A stretch of DNA of 64,000 nucleotides from NCBI GenBank assembly GCA_965140415.1, contig OZ223209.1, positions 5,088,001 through 5,152,000 of the forward strand. Reading direction: 5' to 3'. Below, one piece after another: positions 55,980-64,000 of the stretch. Every line of letters begins with the position of its first letter. Position 1 is the stretch's first letter. The translations under genes were made by a program, and so were the position numbers. Source of the stretch: Myxococcota bacterium (lineage in GTDB: Bacteria; Myxococcota_A; SURF-8). The notes under the pieces are model-generated. The model saw nothing but the letters and a program-made list of their open reading frames with translations, was not told where the DNA came from and searched no databases.

Positions 55980-56086
55980 ATCAATTTTGATCGGGAATGA
56001 ATTCCCTTCGGTCAGACTGCTTTGAACTTGCAAAAAACGCCATAGATCGAAAAATTTGCCGACCGAATTCTATGGGTTATTAAATA

Positions 56087-57256
56087 CTAGCCTTCTCCGA
56101 TTTCTGAATCGGAATCATTCAAGTTGTCTGTTTCAATCTCTTTTGGCTCAAGCCAATCACTATCTGGTCGACATACAAGACGAGCATTACTATATGCCCA
56201 GTCAAGAGTCAAAACAGTATGCCCTAAATAGTTGCCAGAACACGTTTTTTCAACCGCTAAGGCTAGATCAACATGATTGTCATCCACTAAACATAACGGG
56301 AGTAACAACTGAAGCTTCTTTACTCGTGGATAGTATTGTGGCACTGCCGTTTTAAAGTTCCATGACACACGTTTAATTGACAATTCAACGGCGTCCTTAA
56401 CTCGGTTCATTATTCGCCGATATACTCGAGGATCATCCTCAACAGCTTTTCCTAACTCTTTTGAATATTTCTCTTTCTCATCACTATTTAAGTTTCGAGG
56501 GTCTTTCAAAGAAAAATCTCTAGGACTATTATCTTCAAGAAATTCCATTGGATATCTATCTAGCCGATCGATAATTATGTGTTTGAAATCGAGCTCGGGA
56601 TCTCCTTGGCGAACGTCGTATATAAGGTCCGTTGGTTCGTCAAAGTAGTGAGCAGATTCAGGCAATGGATTAAAGTAGCGAACCAAATCCTGCCCAGCAG
56701 CTTTTTCACCAGCAATACAAAACTCAATAATTTTCCATTGAGGTTGATCGTAAGTGTTTCTATTGAAAATAGCGTAGATTGTTTCATACCTAGAATCAAC
56801 AAGTCCGGTATTGAATGCGGCAAATTGACCGTCATCACTGTATTTAATTTTATCTTCCAACATTAACCTAGTGAAGGTTTGAAGAAGGTAACTGTATAGG
56901 ATCGGGAATGGTTTTTCAGGATCAATGCCTTGATTCTTGAACTCCCAGCGTTCATCTATCGCAATATCTTCAAGTTGTCGAATTGTATCAGGAATTTGCC
57001 CGAGATACGCCCATCCTAAAAGCTTGGAGACCTTTTTAGCTGAATTCTTAGAATTAGTGAGGTTGATCCTCGTAATCTGTTTCGCACAAGGTCCTCTTTG
57101 ATTTTCCCCAATCTCAAAATCTATAAGATCTCCTTCTTGTATCAATGAATCTTGACGATCCGTTACATCTGAAATGTGAAAAAACAAATTGCTTTCCAGC
57201 TGTTCAGAAGAAATAAAACCATATCCATCACCAAATTTTAAAATCTTACCTTGCAT
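56087..57256 (-). CDS. Cold-shock (OB) domain fused to DUF3825 domain, AT-rich gene
   Basis: N-terminal GYGFI..LFFHISD..G.RGPCA; C-terminal FNTGL.D..YE.IYA.F, TAVPQYY, LQLLLPLCL, HTVLTLDWAYSNARL..PDSDWL. Confidence 0.82.
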   Translation of the reverse strand: MQGKILKFGDGYGFISSEQLESNLFFHISDVTDRQDSLIQEGDLIDFEIGENQRGPCAKQITRINLTNSKNSAKKVSKLLGWAYLGQIPDTIRQLEDIAIDERWEFKNQGIDPEKPFPILYSYLLQTFTRLMLEDKIKYSDDGQFAAFNTGLVDSRYETIYAIFNRNTYDQPQWKIIEFCIAGEKAAGQDLVRYFNPLPESAHYFDEPTDLIYDVRQGDPELDFKHIIIDRLDRYPMEFLEDNSPRDFSLKDPRNLNSDEKEKYSKELGKAVEDDPRVYRRIMNRVKDAVELSIKRVSWNFKTAVPQYYPRVKKLQLLLPLCLVDDNHVDLALAVEKTCSGNYLGHTVLTLDWAYSNARLVCRPDSDWLEPKEIETDNLNDSDSEIGEG

Positions 57257-57316
57257 ATTATATCCTTATTTGTATTTATTGTAGCTCAACTCCACAATAC
57301 TCCTTCGGAGTAACAA

Positions 57317-57538
57317 TTACGCTTTCGAGTATAACCAGTGATTATCAGATTTCTTTCTTGATTGCAACTTGTATTTCTTTAAAGCTATAAGATGAAATTC
57401 CTTACCCATTGTCAGTTTTTCCTTTTTCGTCAGTAGTTTCCATTCCTCTCTCCCAAAAATTTCAGCTAAAAGTTTCTCTTCTCCTTGCTTCATGTCTTGA
57501 ACCCCATTAGATATTCTCTCTAATTGCATATTTGTCAT
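57317..57538 (-). CDS. Small DUF1413-like protein (73 aa), AT-rich
   Basis: GGAGA RBS; L.EIFG.EEW..L.......GK.F.......K..N...Y.K pattern. Confidence 0.6.
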   Translation of the reverse strand: MTNMQLERISNGVQDMKQGEEKLLAEIFGREEWKLLTKKEKLTMGKEFHLIALKKYKLQSRKKSDNHWLYSKA

Positions 57539-57987
57539 TTTAAAATCTCCATATTGTCTTCTCAATCTCATTGCTCAAATTCTATCGTTCGAGTCTCGCC
57601 ACTTTGGTATTTTATCTTGATCAACATAATTAGGCAAGACCAATTCAGACGACAGGACGGAAATCCGGCTCAATCGAGAGGTGCCTTGTTCGTATAATTT
57701 CTTGCTCGCTCCAGGCCACAAAATCGACTTTTTCGGGGAGACGTTTACACTTGCTGCCGGACGGCTTTTCGCCGCGATTCGGCAGATTCGGCCGCAAACG
57801 CCCGTAAACGAGCACGATCTGACCGCATTAGACACGTAAACCCACACTACAAATGACAGAAAAATCGAAATTCGAGCCACTTTGAGCCTTCATGGGCCCC
57901 TATGCATACCTAATTGAGGCATACCTTATAGATGGTACTGCTCGTTTACGGTCATCTAGTGTCGTTTTAGTGTACGTCTGCGGTCCG

Positions 57988-58530
57988 TTACTGTCCGACC
58001 TTTTCCTCGGATAGAAGATCCAACCCGTCTTTTTCCGCCAATTTGCGTATCGCCGTCTCATCGAAACGAAACAGCGTCCATTCCGATAACGGCTCGGCTC
58101 CCAGTTTGCGATACAGGCGAGTGGCATTCTCGTTCCAATTCAAAGCCGCCAGATCCAGGCGTGGGCACTCGCGTTGATAGGCAATTCGGGCGAGTTCAGT
58201 TAAGATCGCGCGCCCATAACCTCGCCCGCGCTGTTCGGGATTCAGATAAATATCTTCCAAATACAATCCCGGCTTTCCGGTAAAGGTACTGAAATTCATG
58301 AAGTAAACGGCAAAGCCGGCCGGTTTTCCATCGATCTCGGCCAATAACGCCTCGGCACTGGGATGCTCGGAAAAAAGAGCTTGTTGCAGGCTGTTTTCGG
58401 TGGCCTGCACCTGATCGGCCAGGTCTTCGAAGGCGGCAATCTCACGAATAAACTGAATAATCCTGGGCACATCGGATTCAACAGCCTTGCGCAGATGCAA
58501 TGCAGAAGAGTTAGAATGAGGGGATTTCAT
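57988..58530 (-). CDS. GNAT N-acetyltransferase (spermidine/diamine acetyltransferase-like)
   Basis: FSTFTGKPGLYLEDIY..PEQRGRGYG, WNENA..LY.KLGA. Confidence 0.9.
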   Translation of the reverse strand: MKSPHSNSSALHLRKAVESDVPRIIQFIREIAAFEDLADQVQATENSLQQALFSEHPSAEALLAEIDGKPAGFAVYFMNFSTFTGKPGLYLEDIYLNPEQRGRGYGRAILTELARIAYQRECPRLDLAALNWNENATRLYRKLGAEPLSEWTLFRFDETAIRKLAEKDGLDLLSEEKVGQ

Positions 58531-59391: not shown

Positions 59392-59409
59392 ACCCGCAAG
59401 GAGGATTCC

Positions 59410-59997
59410 ATGTCTGAAGTCATCGCCAAAACCCAATTCGACGAAAACGAAAATCATGTCTGCCCGCCGGGAATGATTCGCAGGTTCGATAATTTCCTGC
59501 GCCCGCTGGTTCATCCTCCACACAAGGTCTTCGGCCCGCACGTCAAAAATGGCATGTGCGTTTTGGATGTTGGCTGCGGCGGCGGTTTTTCAACGGTGAA
59601 TATGGCGCAACTGGTCGGCGAAAACGGCGAAATCGTGGCAGTGGATCTGCAACAGGAAATGTTGGATATGACGGCGGCTAGAGCTGAAAAGCTGGGCCTG
59701 AGCGAGCGCATCCATTTTCATCGTTGCCAACAAGATCGGCTCGGTGTTATCGGCTTGTTCGATTTCGCCCTGGCCTTCTGGATGCTTCATGAAACGCCGG
59801 ACCCGCAAGCTTTTTTAAAAGAAGTTTACAGCCTTTTGAAGCCGGGAGGACGGATACTGATCGTGGAACCGAAGTTTCATGTAAGTCGTGCCTTGTTGAA
59901 TCAGGAAGTCGATAGAGCGGCTGGATTCGGCTTCAGGTTGGTCGAGCGCCCCAAAATTCGCCTGTCTCATACGGCACTGCTGGAGAAAACGGCCTAG
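59410..59997 (+). CDS. Class I SAM-dependent methyltransferase
   Basis: VLDVGCGGG, AVDLQ.EML, LKPGG; GAGGA RBS. Confidence 0.92.
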   Translation: MSEVIAKTQFDENENHVCPPGMIRRFDNFLRPLVHPPHKVFGPHVKNGMCVLDVGCGGGFSTVNMAQLVGENGEIVAVDLQQEMLDMTAARAEKLGLSERIHFHRCQQDRLGVIGLFDFALAFWMLHETPDPQAFLKEVYSLLKPGGRILIVEPKFHVSRALLNQEVDRAAGFGFRLVERPKIRLSHTALLEKTA

Positions 59998-60049
59998 CAA
60001 ATGGGCAAAGGAATAGATTCTCTGTATTTAGCAAGCAATCTTGAAACTT

Positions 60050-60117
60050 GTCATGCCCGACTTGATGCGGGATCTCTTTACGATCGTATCGAGATCCTGC
60101 TTCAAGTGCGGGATGAC
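60050..60117. repeat. GTCAT/CGTC-type REP-like palindromic doublet
   Basis: GTCATGCCCGACTTGATGCGGGATCTC...GAGATCCTGCTTCAAGTGCGGGATGAC long imperfect inverted repeat. Confidence 0.7.
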
Positions 60118-60288
60118 GGATAAAACCATCACCAAAATCACATAAGAACCAAGTAGCGCCTGCACTTAATCCCGCCCATCTTAACCTGATTTTACTATTT
60201 TCTTAACAAACCGGCGCAGCTTGACTATGATGGGCTCCGGCATGGGCCAACGTTAATAACTGCTCGATAGCTGTACAAAGGTGATGTG

Positions 60289-61275
60289 ATGAAATCGACT
60301 TACTGTCTTAAAATGATTGTCGTTTTGCTCTTACTGATTCTCGCTGCCTGGGGCTGCTCGGATGATTCGAATGATCCCATTGTAGACGGCGATGGCGAAA
60401 ACGGCGACGGGGATGTGGATGGTGATTTCGACTTGGAAGCAGATGCGCTGCCTTCCGAAACGACATTGAACATCATGACCTACAACGTGCTTTGCTCCTT
60501 CTGCAACGCCACTTACGAGCCCTGGGAAGATCGTTTGCCGCATTTTACGGATATCTTCACCCGGCATGAAGTCGATATCGTCGGCACACAGGAATTATTC
60601 ACCGCAGATGAAGTGAATGAAATTCTGGCGCTCAATCCCAATTTCGAGGCGCTGTATTACATCGACGATCCCGACGATGGCCTGGGCTATCTGGAAGCCT
60701 ACCCGGACGAGGCGATTCTATACCGCACGGATCGCTTCGAAGTAATCGAACACGGCAACTACTGGCTTAGCGAAACCCCGGACGTTCCCTGGGCCGGTGG
60801 CTGGGCGCAAAACAATTTCTGGCGCCTGGTCGGCTGGGCGCATTTCCGGCAGATTTCCGATGGCCGCGAGTTCGTCTTTGTCAACACACACTTCGACAAC
60901 AACGTGCCCAACCAGGAAAACAGCGCGCCCTTATTCATCAGTCGCATCGAGCCCTGGGCGGAAACACTGCCGGTCATCGCCGTCGGCGATTTCAATTCCA
61001 AGCCGGACAGCCCCGCCTATGCCATTTTAACCGAAGGCATCGATGGCGAAGGCTTTGCGCTGGTCAACTCCTTCGATATCGCCGAGAACTGGCGCGTACA
61101 ACACAACCAGGCGCAGGAACCCGACTACGACCCGATTCATCGCATCGACCACATTTTCCTGGCCGGTCCGGTGGAATGGACCGTGTCCGACTGGGTGGTC
61201 GATCTAACGGTTTACGGGCCGCAGGATCAATATCCTTCCGACCATTATCCCATCGCCACAACACTGACCTTCTGA
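60289..61275 (+). CDS. Endonuclease/exonuclease/phosphatase (EEP) family lipoprotein with DGD tract
   Basis: Lipobox AWGC; MTYNV, GTQE, YWLSETP, NTHFD, GDFNS, RIDHIF, SDHYP. Confidence 0.92.
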   Translation: MKSTYCLKMIVVLLLLILAAWGCSDDSNDPIVDGDGENGDGDVDGDFDLEADALPSETTLNIMTYNVLCSFCNATYEPWEDRLPHFTDIFTRHEVDIVGTQELFTADEVNEILALNPNFEALYYIDDPDDGLGYLEAYPDEAILYRTDRFEVIEHGNYWLSETPDVPWAGGWAQNNFWRLVGWAHFRQISDGREFVFVNTHFDNNVPNQENSAPLFISRIEPWAETLPVIAVGDFNSKPDSPAYAILTEGIDGEGFALVNSFDIAENWRVQHNQAQEPDYDPIHRIDHIFLAGPVEWTVSDWVVDLTVYGPQDQYPSDHYPIATTLTF

Positions 61276-61295
61276 TTTTCTGTTGAACGCAAACA

Positions 61296-61326
61296 AAAGG
61301 CGCGAGGCCAAAAGCCCCGCGCCTTT
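61296..61326. terminator. Bidirectional terminator; duplicated at 62029-62055
   Basis: AAAGGCGCGAGGC-CAAAA-GCCCCGCGCCTTT. Confidence 0.75.
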
Positions 61327-61388
61327 ATCTTTTCCGCAAACCGTTTCGATGCGCCTAAAATAAAGCGCAATCGAAAAAGAGACTCGAC

Positions 61389-61661
61389 CTACAGGTCGCC
61401 GTCAGTGGCCATATCGCCATCAACCGTGATGTCGCCGTCTACGGTGATGTCGCCATCAACCGTGATGTCGCCGTCCACGGTCACATCGCCGTCCACGGTC
61501 ACGTCGCCATCTACTGTCACATCGCCGTCGGTGGTGCCGTCGCCGTCCACGGTGACGTCGCCATCGGTGGTGGTGTCATCATCGTCATCGCAGCCAACCA
61601 TAACCAACTGCAAACTGAACACGATTACCAGAACTAAGAAAAACAGGTGCTTGGCTTTCAT
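61389..61661 (-). CDS. DGD-repeat-only lipoprotein A (90 aa, 10 x 6-aa units)
   Basis: GGAGGAG RBS; signal MKAKHLFFLVLVIVFSLQLVMVG-C; CDDDDD then (xTxDGD)10. Confidence 0.8.
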   Translation of the reverse strand: MKAKHLFFLVLVIVFSLQLVMVGCDDDDDTTTDGDVTVDGDGTTDGDVTVDGDVTVDGDVTVDGDITVDGDITVDGDITVDGDMATDGDL

Positions 61662-61913
61662 CTCGCTCTCCTCCACGATTAAAATCTCACAACAAAATAC
61701 GCACAACGCGTAAAACAACTTCAGGGCGGTGATTGTGTATTGGAATTGCCGACATGTTTTAAAAAACGGAAGATTGCTGGGGATGTCATGGTTTGCGGAA
61801 TACGGATTTCATCTCAGCAGATTCCAGACGGCCAACTCCAACACGCTGTTTCCGAATGCGACAGACATTCGCTTCGCCCATAAAACCCCATGAAACAACA
61901 AATACGGGGCGCG

Positions 61914-61941
61914 ATTATACGGAAACTCGAAAAAGAATCAA
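61914..61941 (-). promoter_or_regulatory. Sigma70-type promoter for DGD lipoprotein A
   Basis: Minus strand TTGATT-16 bp-TATAAT. Confidence 0.5.
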
Positions 61942-62028
61942 CAAAAGAATTGTATAGACTGCTGATTTTCTTAATTTACAACAGGATGTAGCCTACGATC
62001 ACCCACTCATTGTACGCCTGAAAACGAC

Positions 62029-62055
62029 AGGCGCGAGGCGAAATGCCCCGCGCCT
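62029..62055 (-). terminator. Terminator of DGD lipoprotein B, paralogous to 61296-61326
   Basis: AGGCGCGAGGC-GAAAT-GCCCCGCGCCT; on the minus strand followed by GTCGTTTT. Confidence 0.7.
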
Positions 62056-62081
62056 TGTAAAACGTTTGACTATCGTTGGGA

Positions 62082-62645
62082 TTATTTACCCATTTCGACC
62101 AAGTCAACTTCCGCCAGATCGAATTCAGCCAGGTCAATTTCGAACATGTCGAAATCGCCGTCTGTGACCGCATCACCGTCAACAACTACATCGCCGTCAA
62201 CCACATCGCCGTCAACCACATCGCCGTCAACAACGACATCGCCGTCAACCGCATCACCATCAACAACGACATCGCCGTCAACCATGTCGCCGTCAACCAT
62301 GTCGCCGTCGGTCATGTCGCCGTCGGTCATGTCGCCGTCAACCATGTCACCGTCGGTGGTGTCGCCATCAGTGGTGTCGCCATCAACCGTGTCGCCGTCA
62401 ACCGTGTCGCCGTCAACCGTGTCGCCGTCAACCGTGTCGCCGTCAACCGTGTCGCCGTCGGTGGTGTCGCCGTCTGTGGTGTCGCCGTCTGTGGTGTCGC
62501 CATCAGCGTTGTCGCCATCAGCCATGTCGCCATCAGCCGTGTCACCGTCGACCGGGTCGTCGTCGTCATCACAGCCGACCATCGCCAACTGCATGCTGAA
62601 GACCAGAATCAGAACCAGGAAAAACAGGTGTTTACTTCTTTTCAT
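62082..62645 (-). CDS. DGD-repeat-only lipoprotein B (187 aa, 26 DGD units, mostly 5-aa period)
   Basis: GGAGGAG RBS; signal MKRSKHLFFLVLILVFSMQLAMVG-C; (xxDGD)n then FDMFE-IDLAE-FDLAE-VDLVE tail. Confidence 0.85.
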   Translation of the reverse strand: MKRSKHLFFLVLILVFSMQLAMVGCDDDDDPVDGDTADGDMADGDNADGDTTDGDTTDGDTTDGDTVDGDTVDGDTVDGDTVDGDTVDGDTTDGDTTDGDMVDGDMTDGDMTDGDMVDGDMVDGDVVVDGDAVDGDVVVDGDVVDGDVVDGDVVVDGDAVTDGDFDMFEIDLAEFDLAEVDLVEMGK

Positions 62646-62924
62646 CTCAATCTCCTCCCGTGTTGTGTTGGATGAAATCAGGTTACGCAGAATGCGCAAG
62701 GTATGCCCAGTAAATCGGAATCAAGCAAAGGATAGCCCGGTCCCCGAAGGAAGAGGCTTCTTCCTTTTGTATTTTCTGCACCGTCGCCAGGTGCATTCTC
62801 GATTGTAAGTCGATACGCAACATCACGTTCTCGTATACGTCCTTGGTTATAAAGGAACTATGTCGCCAGTTTTGTCCACGTCACCCTCCCAAGCACATAA
62901 GGCTTTAGGTGAGCAGTTTACTTC

Positions 62925-62941
62925 TGCAAATGTAATGCCAA
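62925..62941 (-). promoter_or_regulatory. Putative sigma54 promoter for DGD lipoprotein B
   Basis: Minus strand TTGGCAT-TACAT-TTGCA with correct GG-N10-GC spacing. Confidence 0.5.
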
Positions 62942-63275
62942 CCATCCTGTTACAATTTAATTATTCAGAATAATTAGATATTTTTCCATTTTCGGAACAC
63001 GAATAACAACAACCTGTGTACCCTGAGATTGAAAACCCGATCCGAATCTCGGACAAATATGTCAGGCTGTCAGGCAAACTTGCCCCCCAATTTGGAATGC
63101 CTCAAAAGAAAAGCAGATCGGAGGCTTCGGCAAGCAGCTTGCTCTTGACGACCACACATACAATGGAATATACTTAATAAATTGAATAGGTTCAGCGAAC
63201 TTTCGTTGAAAGCATCAGACGATCAGGGTTGTGGGTTAGGCTTTTTTTTCGACCCGTCAGGAAAAGAGCAGGCGC

Positions 63276-64000
63276 GTGACGACAAGCATTCATATCCCGC
63301 TTTCCCGCCCCTTCATGGGAGAGGAAGAAGTGGAAGCGGTTCGGCAAACTCTGCAATCCGGCTGGATTGCCGGGCAAGGTCCGGCCTGCGCGCGCGTGGA
63401 ACGCAAAATTCAAGACGATATGAAAACCCCCTATGCGGCGGTGATATCCAGTTGCACGGCAGCCTTGCATCTGGCGTTGCAAGTTTCCGGAATCGGCAAA
63501 GGCGACGAGGTCTTGGTCAGCGACTATTCCTTCCCCGCCACCGGTCACGCCGTGTTGTACGTGGGAGCGACTCCGGTTTTCGTTGATGTAGATCCCGCCA
63601 CGGGAAACGCTTCCGTTGAAACCTTGCAAGCCGCCCTGACAGAACGAACACGCGCAATCCTGCTCGTGCATACGTTCGGTCTGATGGCCGATATGGAGCC
63701 TATCGCCGAATTCGCCCGCGAACACGGCCTGCTGCTCATCGAAGACGCCGCCTGCGCCTACGGTGCGCTGGATGCACAGCAACAACCGCCAGGCAGGCAT
63801 TCCGATATCGCCTGCTTCTCTTTTCATGCGCGAAAGAATGCGACTTCCGGCGAAGGCGGCGGCCTGATTACGACACAACAGACCATTTACGACAAGGTGA
63901 AATCTCTTACTTTCTTCGGTGTGCGCTCCGCCTTGCAGCGCCGCGACGCCGAAAGCTTCCAGCTACCGGAGTTTGGCGAGCTTGGATATAATTACAAGCT
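63276..64000 (+). CDS. DegT/DnrJ/EryC1/StrS sugar aminotransferase, 3'-truncated by window edge (absent from ORF track)
   Basis: Manual translation from GTG 63276: IPLSRPFMGEEE..SGW..QGP, SSCTAALHLAL, GDEV, IEDAACAYG, CFSFHARKNATSGEGG. Confidence 0.92.
   Translation, partial: MTTSIHIPLSRPFMGEEEVEAVRQTLQSGWIAGQGPACARVERKIQDDMKTPYAAVISSCTAALHLALQVSGIGKGDEVLVSDYSFPATGHAVLYVGATPVFVDVDPATGNASVETLQAALTERTRAILLVHTFGLMADMEPIAEFAREHGLLLIEDAACAYGALDAQQQPPGRHSDIACFSFHARKNATSGEGGGLITTQQTIYDKVKSLTFFGVRSALQRRDAESFQLPEFGELGYNYK

Follow-up and report, generated by a model that had tools for sequence, protein, structure and literature searches.

Two tandem lipoprotein genes of a Myxococcota bacterium that encode little besides an acidic DGD tether

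Acidic low-complexity tethers of lipoproteins are usually dismissed as spacers, and the locus described here raises the question of what such a tether does when it is encoded alone. It lies in a stretch of 64,000 nucleotides (hereafter the window, meaning the whole of the DNA that was analyzed) from the genome of a Myxococcota bacterium, where two tandem genes, A and B, encode lipoproteins consisting of little more than a repeated Asp-Gly-Asp (DGD) tract (Table 1). By sequence and pattern test, both products carry a bacterial lipoprotein signal with a basic n-region, a hydrophobic h-region, and a lipobox ending in G/A/S-Cys. Mature A contains 25 Asp in 67 residues, and mature B contains 65 Asp or Glu and one Lys in 163; acidic residues make up 37–40% of the mature chains, and that Lys is the only one in either. 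The longest stretch outside the tract is 9 aa in A and 23 aa in B, where it forms the tail, and the two genes rank first and third by this measure among the 384 open reading frames (ORFs) of the genome that contain at least three DGD. Sequence comparison leads us to conclude that A and B are real, lineage-restricted genes that look maintained and are probably functional. Two selected genes for the tether alone would amount to a natural experiment on the tether's own job, be it cation binding, shielding, sorting, or Ca2+-induced folding, with a bearing on approximately 330 proteins of the genome and on similar tracts in the family.

A preliminary description of this DNA had proposed that the two genes are tandem paralogs produced by duplication, and this was upheld by signal peptides identical at 17 of 21 positions up to the lipobox Cys, the same GGAGGAG ribosome-binding site, a mature chain that starts with Cys and five Asp (C-D5) in both, and nearly identical terminators. 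Only one pair exceeded the A/B signal-peptide score among all pairs of 332 DGD lipoproteins, the next best match of each gene reaching 8–9 of 21 identities, and the terminators are each other's sole strong blastn match in the 5.98-Mb genome (a single contig, G000; E ~2 × 10−6). Logan contigs of sequencing run X1, which may be the source sample, showed no difference from window positions 59400–62412 and 62430–63300, which confirms the start and stop of each gene and the full length of A. The stops are therefore not assembly errors, and an assembly artifact as their origin was ruled out. Five identical 15-nt units in B suggest recent slippage, the unit count of this perfect run being one that no long contig bridges. 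Contigs of two public runs showed no listed variant, such contigs dropping rare variants.

The tract of which A and B are made is the lineage's common general-purpose linker. In six-frame ORFs no shorter than 40 aa, the DGD tripeptide is found 5,067 times, compared with 596–1,456 times for seven comparable tripeptides and 2,317 for GDG, which overlaps DGD, and its abundance is therefore not due to chance. Of the 384 ORFs with at least three DGD, 333 stand behind a lipobox pattern; nine DGD ORFs besides A and B lie in the window. Periods of five and six residues dominate the spacings between DGD (1,179 and 771 of 2,308), so the periods of A and B are the two standard ones of the genome. The 236 tracts with four or more units comprise 145 internal, 78 N-terminal, and 11 C-terminal ones and two, those of A and B, that run from anchor to end; the special point about the pair is that it encodes the tether alone. 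The 11 C-terminal tracts belong to lipoproteins that end in a free tract of up to approximately 30 units with nothing behind it (G000:C1 at 468841, 584193, 593568, 188428, 1732024, 1870379, 2627627, 3212179, 3693895, 3751152, and 5745290), and because they link to nothing, the tract is not merely a spacer. Elsewhere in the family, each of the five other genomes shows a paired-DGD pattern frequently, as does G008, whereas three other genomes of the order have it only rarely. One tract-bearing protein match (P0007) was labeled Myxococcales bacterium by its source.

To judge whether A and B are maintained, we compared the proportions of differing silent (pS) and nonsynonymous (pN) sites. Over the 26 codons of the signal peptide and C-D5, pS is 0.73 and pN 0.072 (Fisher p = 6 × 10−8), and over 21 codons the values are 0.67 and 0.09; divergence of 73% against 7% points to an old duplication under purifying selection, and the five Asp after the Cys were retained across silent changes. 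Twelve control paralog pairs were defined by their mature domains, three of them being younger and not comparable; in all nine pairs with pS of at least 0.45, pN was 0.25–0.66, and gapped alignment keeps these nine at 3–12 of 21 identities. A six-frame tblastn search with the flanks of A and B found nothing elsewhere at E < 0.01 and no domain remnant behind either stop. The terminators lie 26 and 62 nt behind the stops of the two genes, and because they are nearly identical, without another strong match in the genome, and this close, the duplicated unit was most simply already domain-less. Confirmed stops, signal-peptide constraint, a shared terminator, and the missing remnant domain together bear out the earlier view that A and B are maintained rather than truncated remnants. 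Two other short DGD frames look different: the ORF at G000:C1:4152732–4152962 (-), the third short DGD ORF of this genome beside A and B, runs into coding-like sequence in another frame, like a broken gene, and the short lipoprotein frame L074 looks frameshifted or decayed.

The tracts of the two paralogs differ much as first described. A has 10 DGD units in a strict six-residue period, all nine spacers being three residues long; seven of these fit the VTVDGD/ITVDGD unit proposed for the whole tract, and the other two are GTT and MAT. B has 26 units, mostly with a five-residue period (spacers of two residues in 21 of 25 cases and of three in four), together with the spacer drift and the fourfold hydrophobic-D-hydrophobic-x-E tail that had been reported. 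The [VI]TV spacer occurs seven times among the DGD ORFs of the genome, always in A; 37 of 45 six-period tracts contain Pro, and A is Pro-free; and B alone, genome-wide, has at least three successive pentads of the tail type. The synonymous variation between units had been taken as a pointer to selection on the protein in A and B. GGC/GGT variation is present in B (22 GGC and 4 GGT) and absent from A (GGC in 10 of 10), and tracts in general vary silently at their DGD codons (pS 0.66 in A and 0.69 in B, against a median of 0.90 for 108 tracts), so the codon argument says nothing special about A and B and we do not retain it.

Of the five functions that the preliminary description had offered for the tract, we find a polyanionic brush that binds cations the most plausible; no specific backing emerged for glycosylation, biomineral nucleation, or isoAsp formation. 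We put the full reading at somewhat short of an even chance: A and B would be working genes for abundant lipid-anchored, putative cation-binding polyanionic brushes, like the Lip/H.8 lipoprotein of Neisseria. A single acidic tether of the form (x2–3 DGD)n serves hundreds of exported proteins in the lineage, and on the simplest view a domain-less copy comprising signal peptide, CDDDDD, tract, and terminator was duplicated long ago. Signal peptide, ribosome-binding site, palindrome, and terminator were then conserved while the tracts were rebuilt with different periods. The precursors would be lipidated at Cys, anchored in the membrane, and most likely carried by Lol to the outer membrane, following established lipoprotein biology. 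The mature chains may be mostly disordered polyanions that condense Ca2+ or Mg2+, fill or cross-link the layer to which other lipoproteins contribute the same kind of tract, and thereby or otherwise protect the cell surface, with A as the short and B as the long form; the strong signal-peptide constraint may be read as a sign of high abundance. Because LolA, LpxC, and LpxK are present, the cell is an ordinary lipopolysaccharide (LPS) diderm; the idea that the tracts replace LPS was rejected on the occurrence of LpxC and LpxK in nine of 10 genomes. Function of a tract without a domain, which had also been proposed, is supported in part by the 11 free C-terminal tracts and by an independent tract-only lipoprotein in a relative (L076:1129–1335 (+), G003:C65; 69 aa, mature 48 aa), whose signal peptide is unrelated to those of A and B. 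That gene has a sigma-factor-like gene on one side and, directly downstream, in the same frame and separated by one TAA, a gene whose secreted DGD product has a signal of its own and a C-terminal sorting-like tail; the tract-only gene may have arisen in parallel or be a stub.

Several observations weigh against the brush. No ortholog of A or B was detected by signal-peptide protein and DNA searches in nine other genomes of the order, which gave weak matches only (G000 is the sole genome of its genus in the comparison), and one might expect relatives to have kept a key component of the envelope. Seven weak matches in relatives were inspected, and all had domains. A search of a genome collection likewise gave no ortholog and one spurious locus, and a metagenome scan gave none among the matches listed, one unrelated secreted protein apart. 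In the relatives, where full-protein searches gave the best 150 matches listed with 123 and 39 further, a survey of 51 loci mostly chosen for short frames yielded, among the matches listed, 50 lipobox ORFs containing three DGD or more: 42 had a domain, seven ran off an end, and one was tract-only. The control comparison is biased in that A and B were partly picked by signal-peptide likeness; the Cys of one control pair may be misplaced, and homology is not certain for every control N-terminus. Codon bias is weak as a sign of high expression (B in the 95th percentile, A in the 69th), and spacer pN/pS values of 0.60 in A and 0.88 in B, against a median of 0.68, indicate average or weak constraint. 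Nor is a surface location given, because Asp at positions +2 and +3 is the inner-membrane retention signal of E. coli.

This last point leads to an alternative that we regard as unlikely, although it is the most serious one, namely that both lipoproteins are retained in the inner membrane, where a periplasmic brush would buffer divalent cations or add fixed negative charge as periplasmic glucans do. Both mature chains begin C-D-D, the strongest retention signal of this kind in E. coli (bioRxiv 10.1101/2021.01.05.425367), a start found in only 19 of the 333 DGD lipoproteins and embedded in the five Asp retained through silent changes. However, sorting rules vary among bacteria, and A and B are without the Lys at +2 and Ala at +7 that are used in sorting in Myxococcus xanthus, where Lys at +2 marks inner-membrane lipoproteins (PMC3222651). 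We think it slightly less likely still that A and B are remnants of domain loss, that is, stubs that persist nearly neutrally while the tract drifts by slippage. Their architecture equals the N-terminus of the 78 other N-terminal tracts, domain loss is an easy mutation for which L076 is an independent case, their spacers drift as fast as those of linkers, and they have no orthologs in the searches above; against this, pN/pS of the signal peptide is approximately 0.1, ribosome-binding site, palindrome, and terminator are conserved with silent sites near saturation, the flanks hold no leftover domain sequence, and the loss would need either to predate the old duplication or to have occurred twice beside homologous terminators. 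Lower still we place the proposal that the selected product is the N-terminus, with the tract as dispensable filler; either the signal peptide after cleavage or the Cys-D5 lipopeptide in its acylated form would act as a signal or membrane modulator. The lipoprotein-signal-derived pheromones of Enterococcus are the analogy, and conservation within the coding parts of the pair is confined to the signal peptide and C-D5, which are far more constrained than other signal peptides of this genome. All the changes are conservative hydrophobic swaps, however, which high expression explains equally well; no processing or receptor gene is adjacent, and we know of no diderm precedent for a signal peptide as product. 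Least probable of all, and by our estimate very improbable, is that the tracts are modification scaffolds for O-glycosylation of Thr, hydroxylation of Asp, or formation of isoAsp. A nucleotide-sugar operon is transcribed divergently from B, Thr numbers 13 in mature A and 19 in B, and the genome has a PCMT gene; but no glycosyltransferase is recognizable among the listed ORFs of that operon, the last third of the B tract is nearly without Thr, and the presence of PCMT is not specific, since the profile was matched in 14 of 14 control genomes too. The Asp β-hydroxylase profile (PF05118) was matched in none of 10 genomes, and its control likewise nowhere.

Structure prediction raises a further alternative for A. 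The best single-sequence AlphaFold2 model of A has ten strands with a period of six (pLDDT [predicted local distance difference test] 78.8; predicted template modeling score [pTM] 0.54); for B, no stable structure was predicted in the same way (pLDDT 52; pTM 0.12). It is conceivable, if doubtful, that A is a folded Ca2+-dependent right-handed β-helix, a minimal lipid-anchored solenoid built of G-D-hydrophobic-T-hydrophobic-D hexads with V/I inside and ladders of Thr and Asp outside, which could stack or template ions; the hydrophobic end and tail of B could follow suit. The low-root-mean-square deviation (rmsd) matches of the model are right-handed helices (bactofilin 6ria, Z 5.8, rmsd 2.6, 60 aligned; MinC 4v02, Z 6.1, rmsd 2.5, 62 aligned), and the Pfam bactofilin profile (PF04519), which did not match B, scored 23.7 bits over residues 30–83 of A (24.2 in a second scan). 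The confinement of [VI]TV to A and the lack of Pro fit such a fold, as does a pattern with only V and I inside, unlike the artifacts shown in PMC11795689. That source also reports that AlphaFold2 builds confident, unrealistic β-solenoids from repeats (PMC11795689), and the model of A may be one of these. The five models ranged from 78.8 to 41.3, every Z was below 8, Foldseek gave nothing at E ≤ 0.001, the bactofilin score is below the cut-off of 27.9 and equaled by other tracts and even antisense frames, a relative has seven hexads of similar type within a multi-domain protein (L057), and the helix would make no more than about three turns, each with six Asp. Predictor bias, the lack of a Z of at least 8, the sub-cut-off score shared with other tracts, and the L057 hexads are why we give the model little weight. 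No Pfam or NCBIfam family scored above cut-off for A or B; the best ESM Atlas matches (0.80–0.81) were to unnamed clusters and within the range of shuffled proteins; and complex prediction with three mature A and four Ca scored 0.00 in two runs in which the controls did not fold. A broader version is as doubtful as the helix: the DGD tract would be a Ca2+-switchable structural envelope polymer instead of a passive leash, A a lipid-anchored three-turn β-helix and B its long, graded counterpart with a hydrophobic capping tail, both nucleating or cross-linking a proteinaceous, polyanionic coat made of the tracts of approximately 330 other lipoproteins.

Returning to the polyanionic brush, the nearest conceptual precedent is the Lip of Neisseria, which is almost pure repeat. 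A and B resemble it in that a short repeat that serves as a linker in the organism's own lipoproteins makes up nearly the whole mature chain. Laz and AniA, too, have the AAEAP repeat of Lip/H.8, as their N-terminal region (PMC3916388, PMC3302066, PMC5542605), and Lip is an abundant lipoprotein (PMC12829745). The motif of A and B is instead DGD plus two or three residues, it is shared by approximately 330 proteins rather than three, the chains are far more acidic and come in two period variants, and the bacterium is apparently environmental. With the Vsa/Vlp proteins of Mycoplasma, in which a conserved N-terminus precedes a variable tandem-repeat region that shields the cell (PMC6080569), A and B share a conserved N-terminus and a paralog-specific tandem repeat in outline only, there being no sequence relationship; Vsa has a 242-aa N-terminal part, units of 10–19 aa, and silent cassettes with recombination, whereas A and B come from a diderm that has LPS genes, and each is equipped with its own start, ribosome-binding site, and terminator. 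Disordered linkers behind the anchor of the E. coli outer-membrane lipoproteins RcsF, NlpD, and Pal aid Lol sorting (bioRxiv 10.1101/2021.01.05.425367) and are likewise low-complexity, which fits the 78 N-terminal tracts of the genome, but they are aperiodic and always lead to a domain, whereas nothing follows the tract in A and B. Bactofilins (PF04519) share the G-x-hydrophobic-x-hydrophobic-x hexad and the right-handedness of the A model; they are cytoplasmic proteins of approximately 100 aa without a lipobox, unlike A and B with their lipoprotein signal and the sub-cut-off score of A, and the genome's true bactofilin is at G000:154064. The Ser-Asp stalks of the staphylococcal Sdr/Clf adhesins are also acidic low-complexity repeats of surface proteins and gave weak NCBIfam matches for A (12–20 bits against cut-offs of 999–2500 bits), but they have a dipeptide period, a sortase anchor, and ligand-binding domains, and A and B have neither a domain nor a C-terminal anchor. 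As brushes, A and B would work like Neisseria Lip/H.8 and, loosely, like the Mycoplasma shield lipoproteins, but they belong to neither of these groups, nor to the bactofilins or Sdr adhesins; they are a further form of the repeat-only lipoprotein design. A search of the openly accessible literature found no description of DGD tracts and turned up a paper on DDxP proteins (PMC7730722).

Tract-only DGD lipoproteins were also scarce in wider protein searches. The exact A and B sequences are absent from the protein collection searched. Three protein searches gave 8, 5, and 1 matches, of which P0016 alone looked tract-only, a protein of 96 aa on a 573-bp contig that may be cut by the contig end. 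In a search of 1.84 billion representatives, no tract-only DGD lipoprotein was found in 19 proteins inspected among the 150 of 1,377 matches listed (all 16 of at most 283 aa and three of 316–318 aa). A tandem pair in G002 was rejected as an ortholog of A and B because it carries Cys-rich domains.

Table 1. Positions of the two genes and their elements in the window
Feature	Position	Strand	Basis
Gene A, tract-only lipoprotein, 90 aa (mature 67 aa, net charge -25)	61389..61661	-	Translation; sequence and TAG stop confirmed by run X1 contig
Gene B, tract-only lipoprotein, 187 aa (mature 163 aa, net charge -64)	62082..62645	-	Translation; start and TAA stop confirmed by run X1 contigs
Residues 1-23 of A, signal peptide II, ahead of lipobox Cys24 (61590-61592) and five Asp	61593..61661	-	Sequence, lipobox pattern
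Residues 1-24 of B, signal peptide II, ahead of lipobox Cys25 (62571-62573) and five Asp	62574..62645	-	Sequence, lipobox pattern
DGD tract of A, 10 units, six-residue period, spacers VTV/ITV in 7/9	61395..61565	-	Sequence
DGD tract of B, 26 units, mostly five-residue period, spacers from polar to hydrophobic	62154..62549	-	Sequence
Tail of B, four hydrophobic-D-hydrophobic-x-E pentads	62094..62153	-	Sole ORF of the genome with at least three successive pentads of this type
Ribosome-binding site GGAGGAG of A, 6 nt 5′ of ATG	61668..61674	-	Sequence
Ribosome-binding site GGAGGAG of B, 6 nt 5′ of ATG	62652..62658	-	Sequence
Short palindrome of A, ~50 nt upstream of ATG; sequence and position common to B	61698..61713	-	Comparison of the two copies
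Palindrome upstream of B, a homolog of the A copy	62684..62699	-	Comparison of the two copies
Sigma-70-like promoter candidate for A, 10/12 consensus matches	61914..61941	-	Pattern scan
Intrinsic terminator of A, separating this gene from the EEP gene convergent with it	61296..61326	-	Sequence
Intrinsic terminator of B, 31/35 nt identical to that of A	62029..62055	-	Sequence

The palindrome upstream of both genes may be an operator, part of a promoter, or a 5′ hairpin. Its pattern was derived from its two copies, and its uniqueness is therefore partly circular; in a looser form it gave 35 strand-counted matches in the genome, mostly within coding regions, and no regulon was seen. The promoter candidate of A is not significant alone, since four such sites were found against 3.7 expected. 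Predicted structure in the 249-nt stretch upstream of A is not unusual (z 0.26), and no Rfam match came near the gathering score. The tracts leave antisense open frames on the + strand (62076–62675, 62146–62808, and 61405–61713) that are Ser/Pro/Thr-rich or Val/Ala/Asn-rich and could be taken for genes by gene callers.

The operon divergent from B (window 63276–64000 and L054 816–4553 (+)) encodes a DegT aminotransferase identified by profile scan. Its other genes we take from their sequences to encode an NAD-dependent epimerase, a hexapeptide acetyltransferase, and a Gfo/Idh/MocA-like oxidoreductase, and the whole presumably resembles a diacetamido-sugar pathway. Convergent with A is a gene for an EEP-family lipoprotein with a short DGD tether (60286–61275 (+)); its closest homologs are in another family of the order (75–76% identity, against 50–62% in its own family), which suggests transfer. 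A low-GC island at 56001–58000 (0.40 against approximately 0.55), which holds a gene for a cold-shock domain plus DUF3825, was probably acquired. Elsewhere, a small family of lipoproteins combines a DGD tract with one conserved Cys-rich domain of approximately 90 aa (L039:5522–6688 (-) in G002:C12, L073, and G000:C1:38458–39048) and is tandemly duplicated in G002. Other short DGD lipoproteins (G000:C1 at 1071684, 2041877, 3321063, and 5229589; L041) share a conserved C-terminal segment of approximately 50 aa with a β-strand–like end, which is possibly an outer-membrane sorting or barrel-completing tail.

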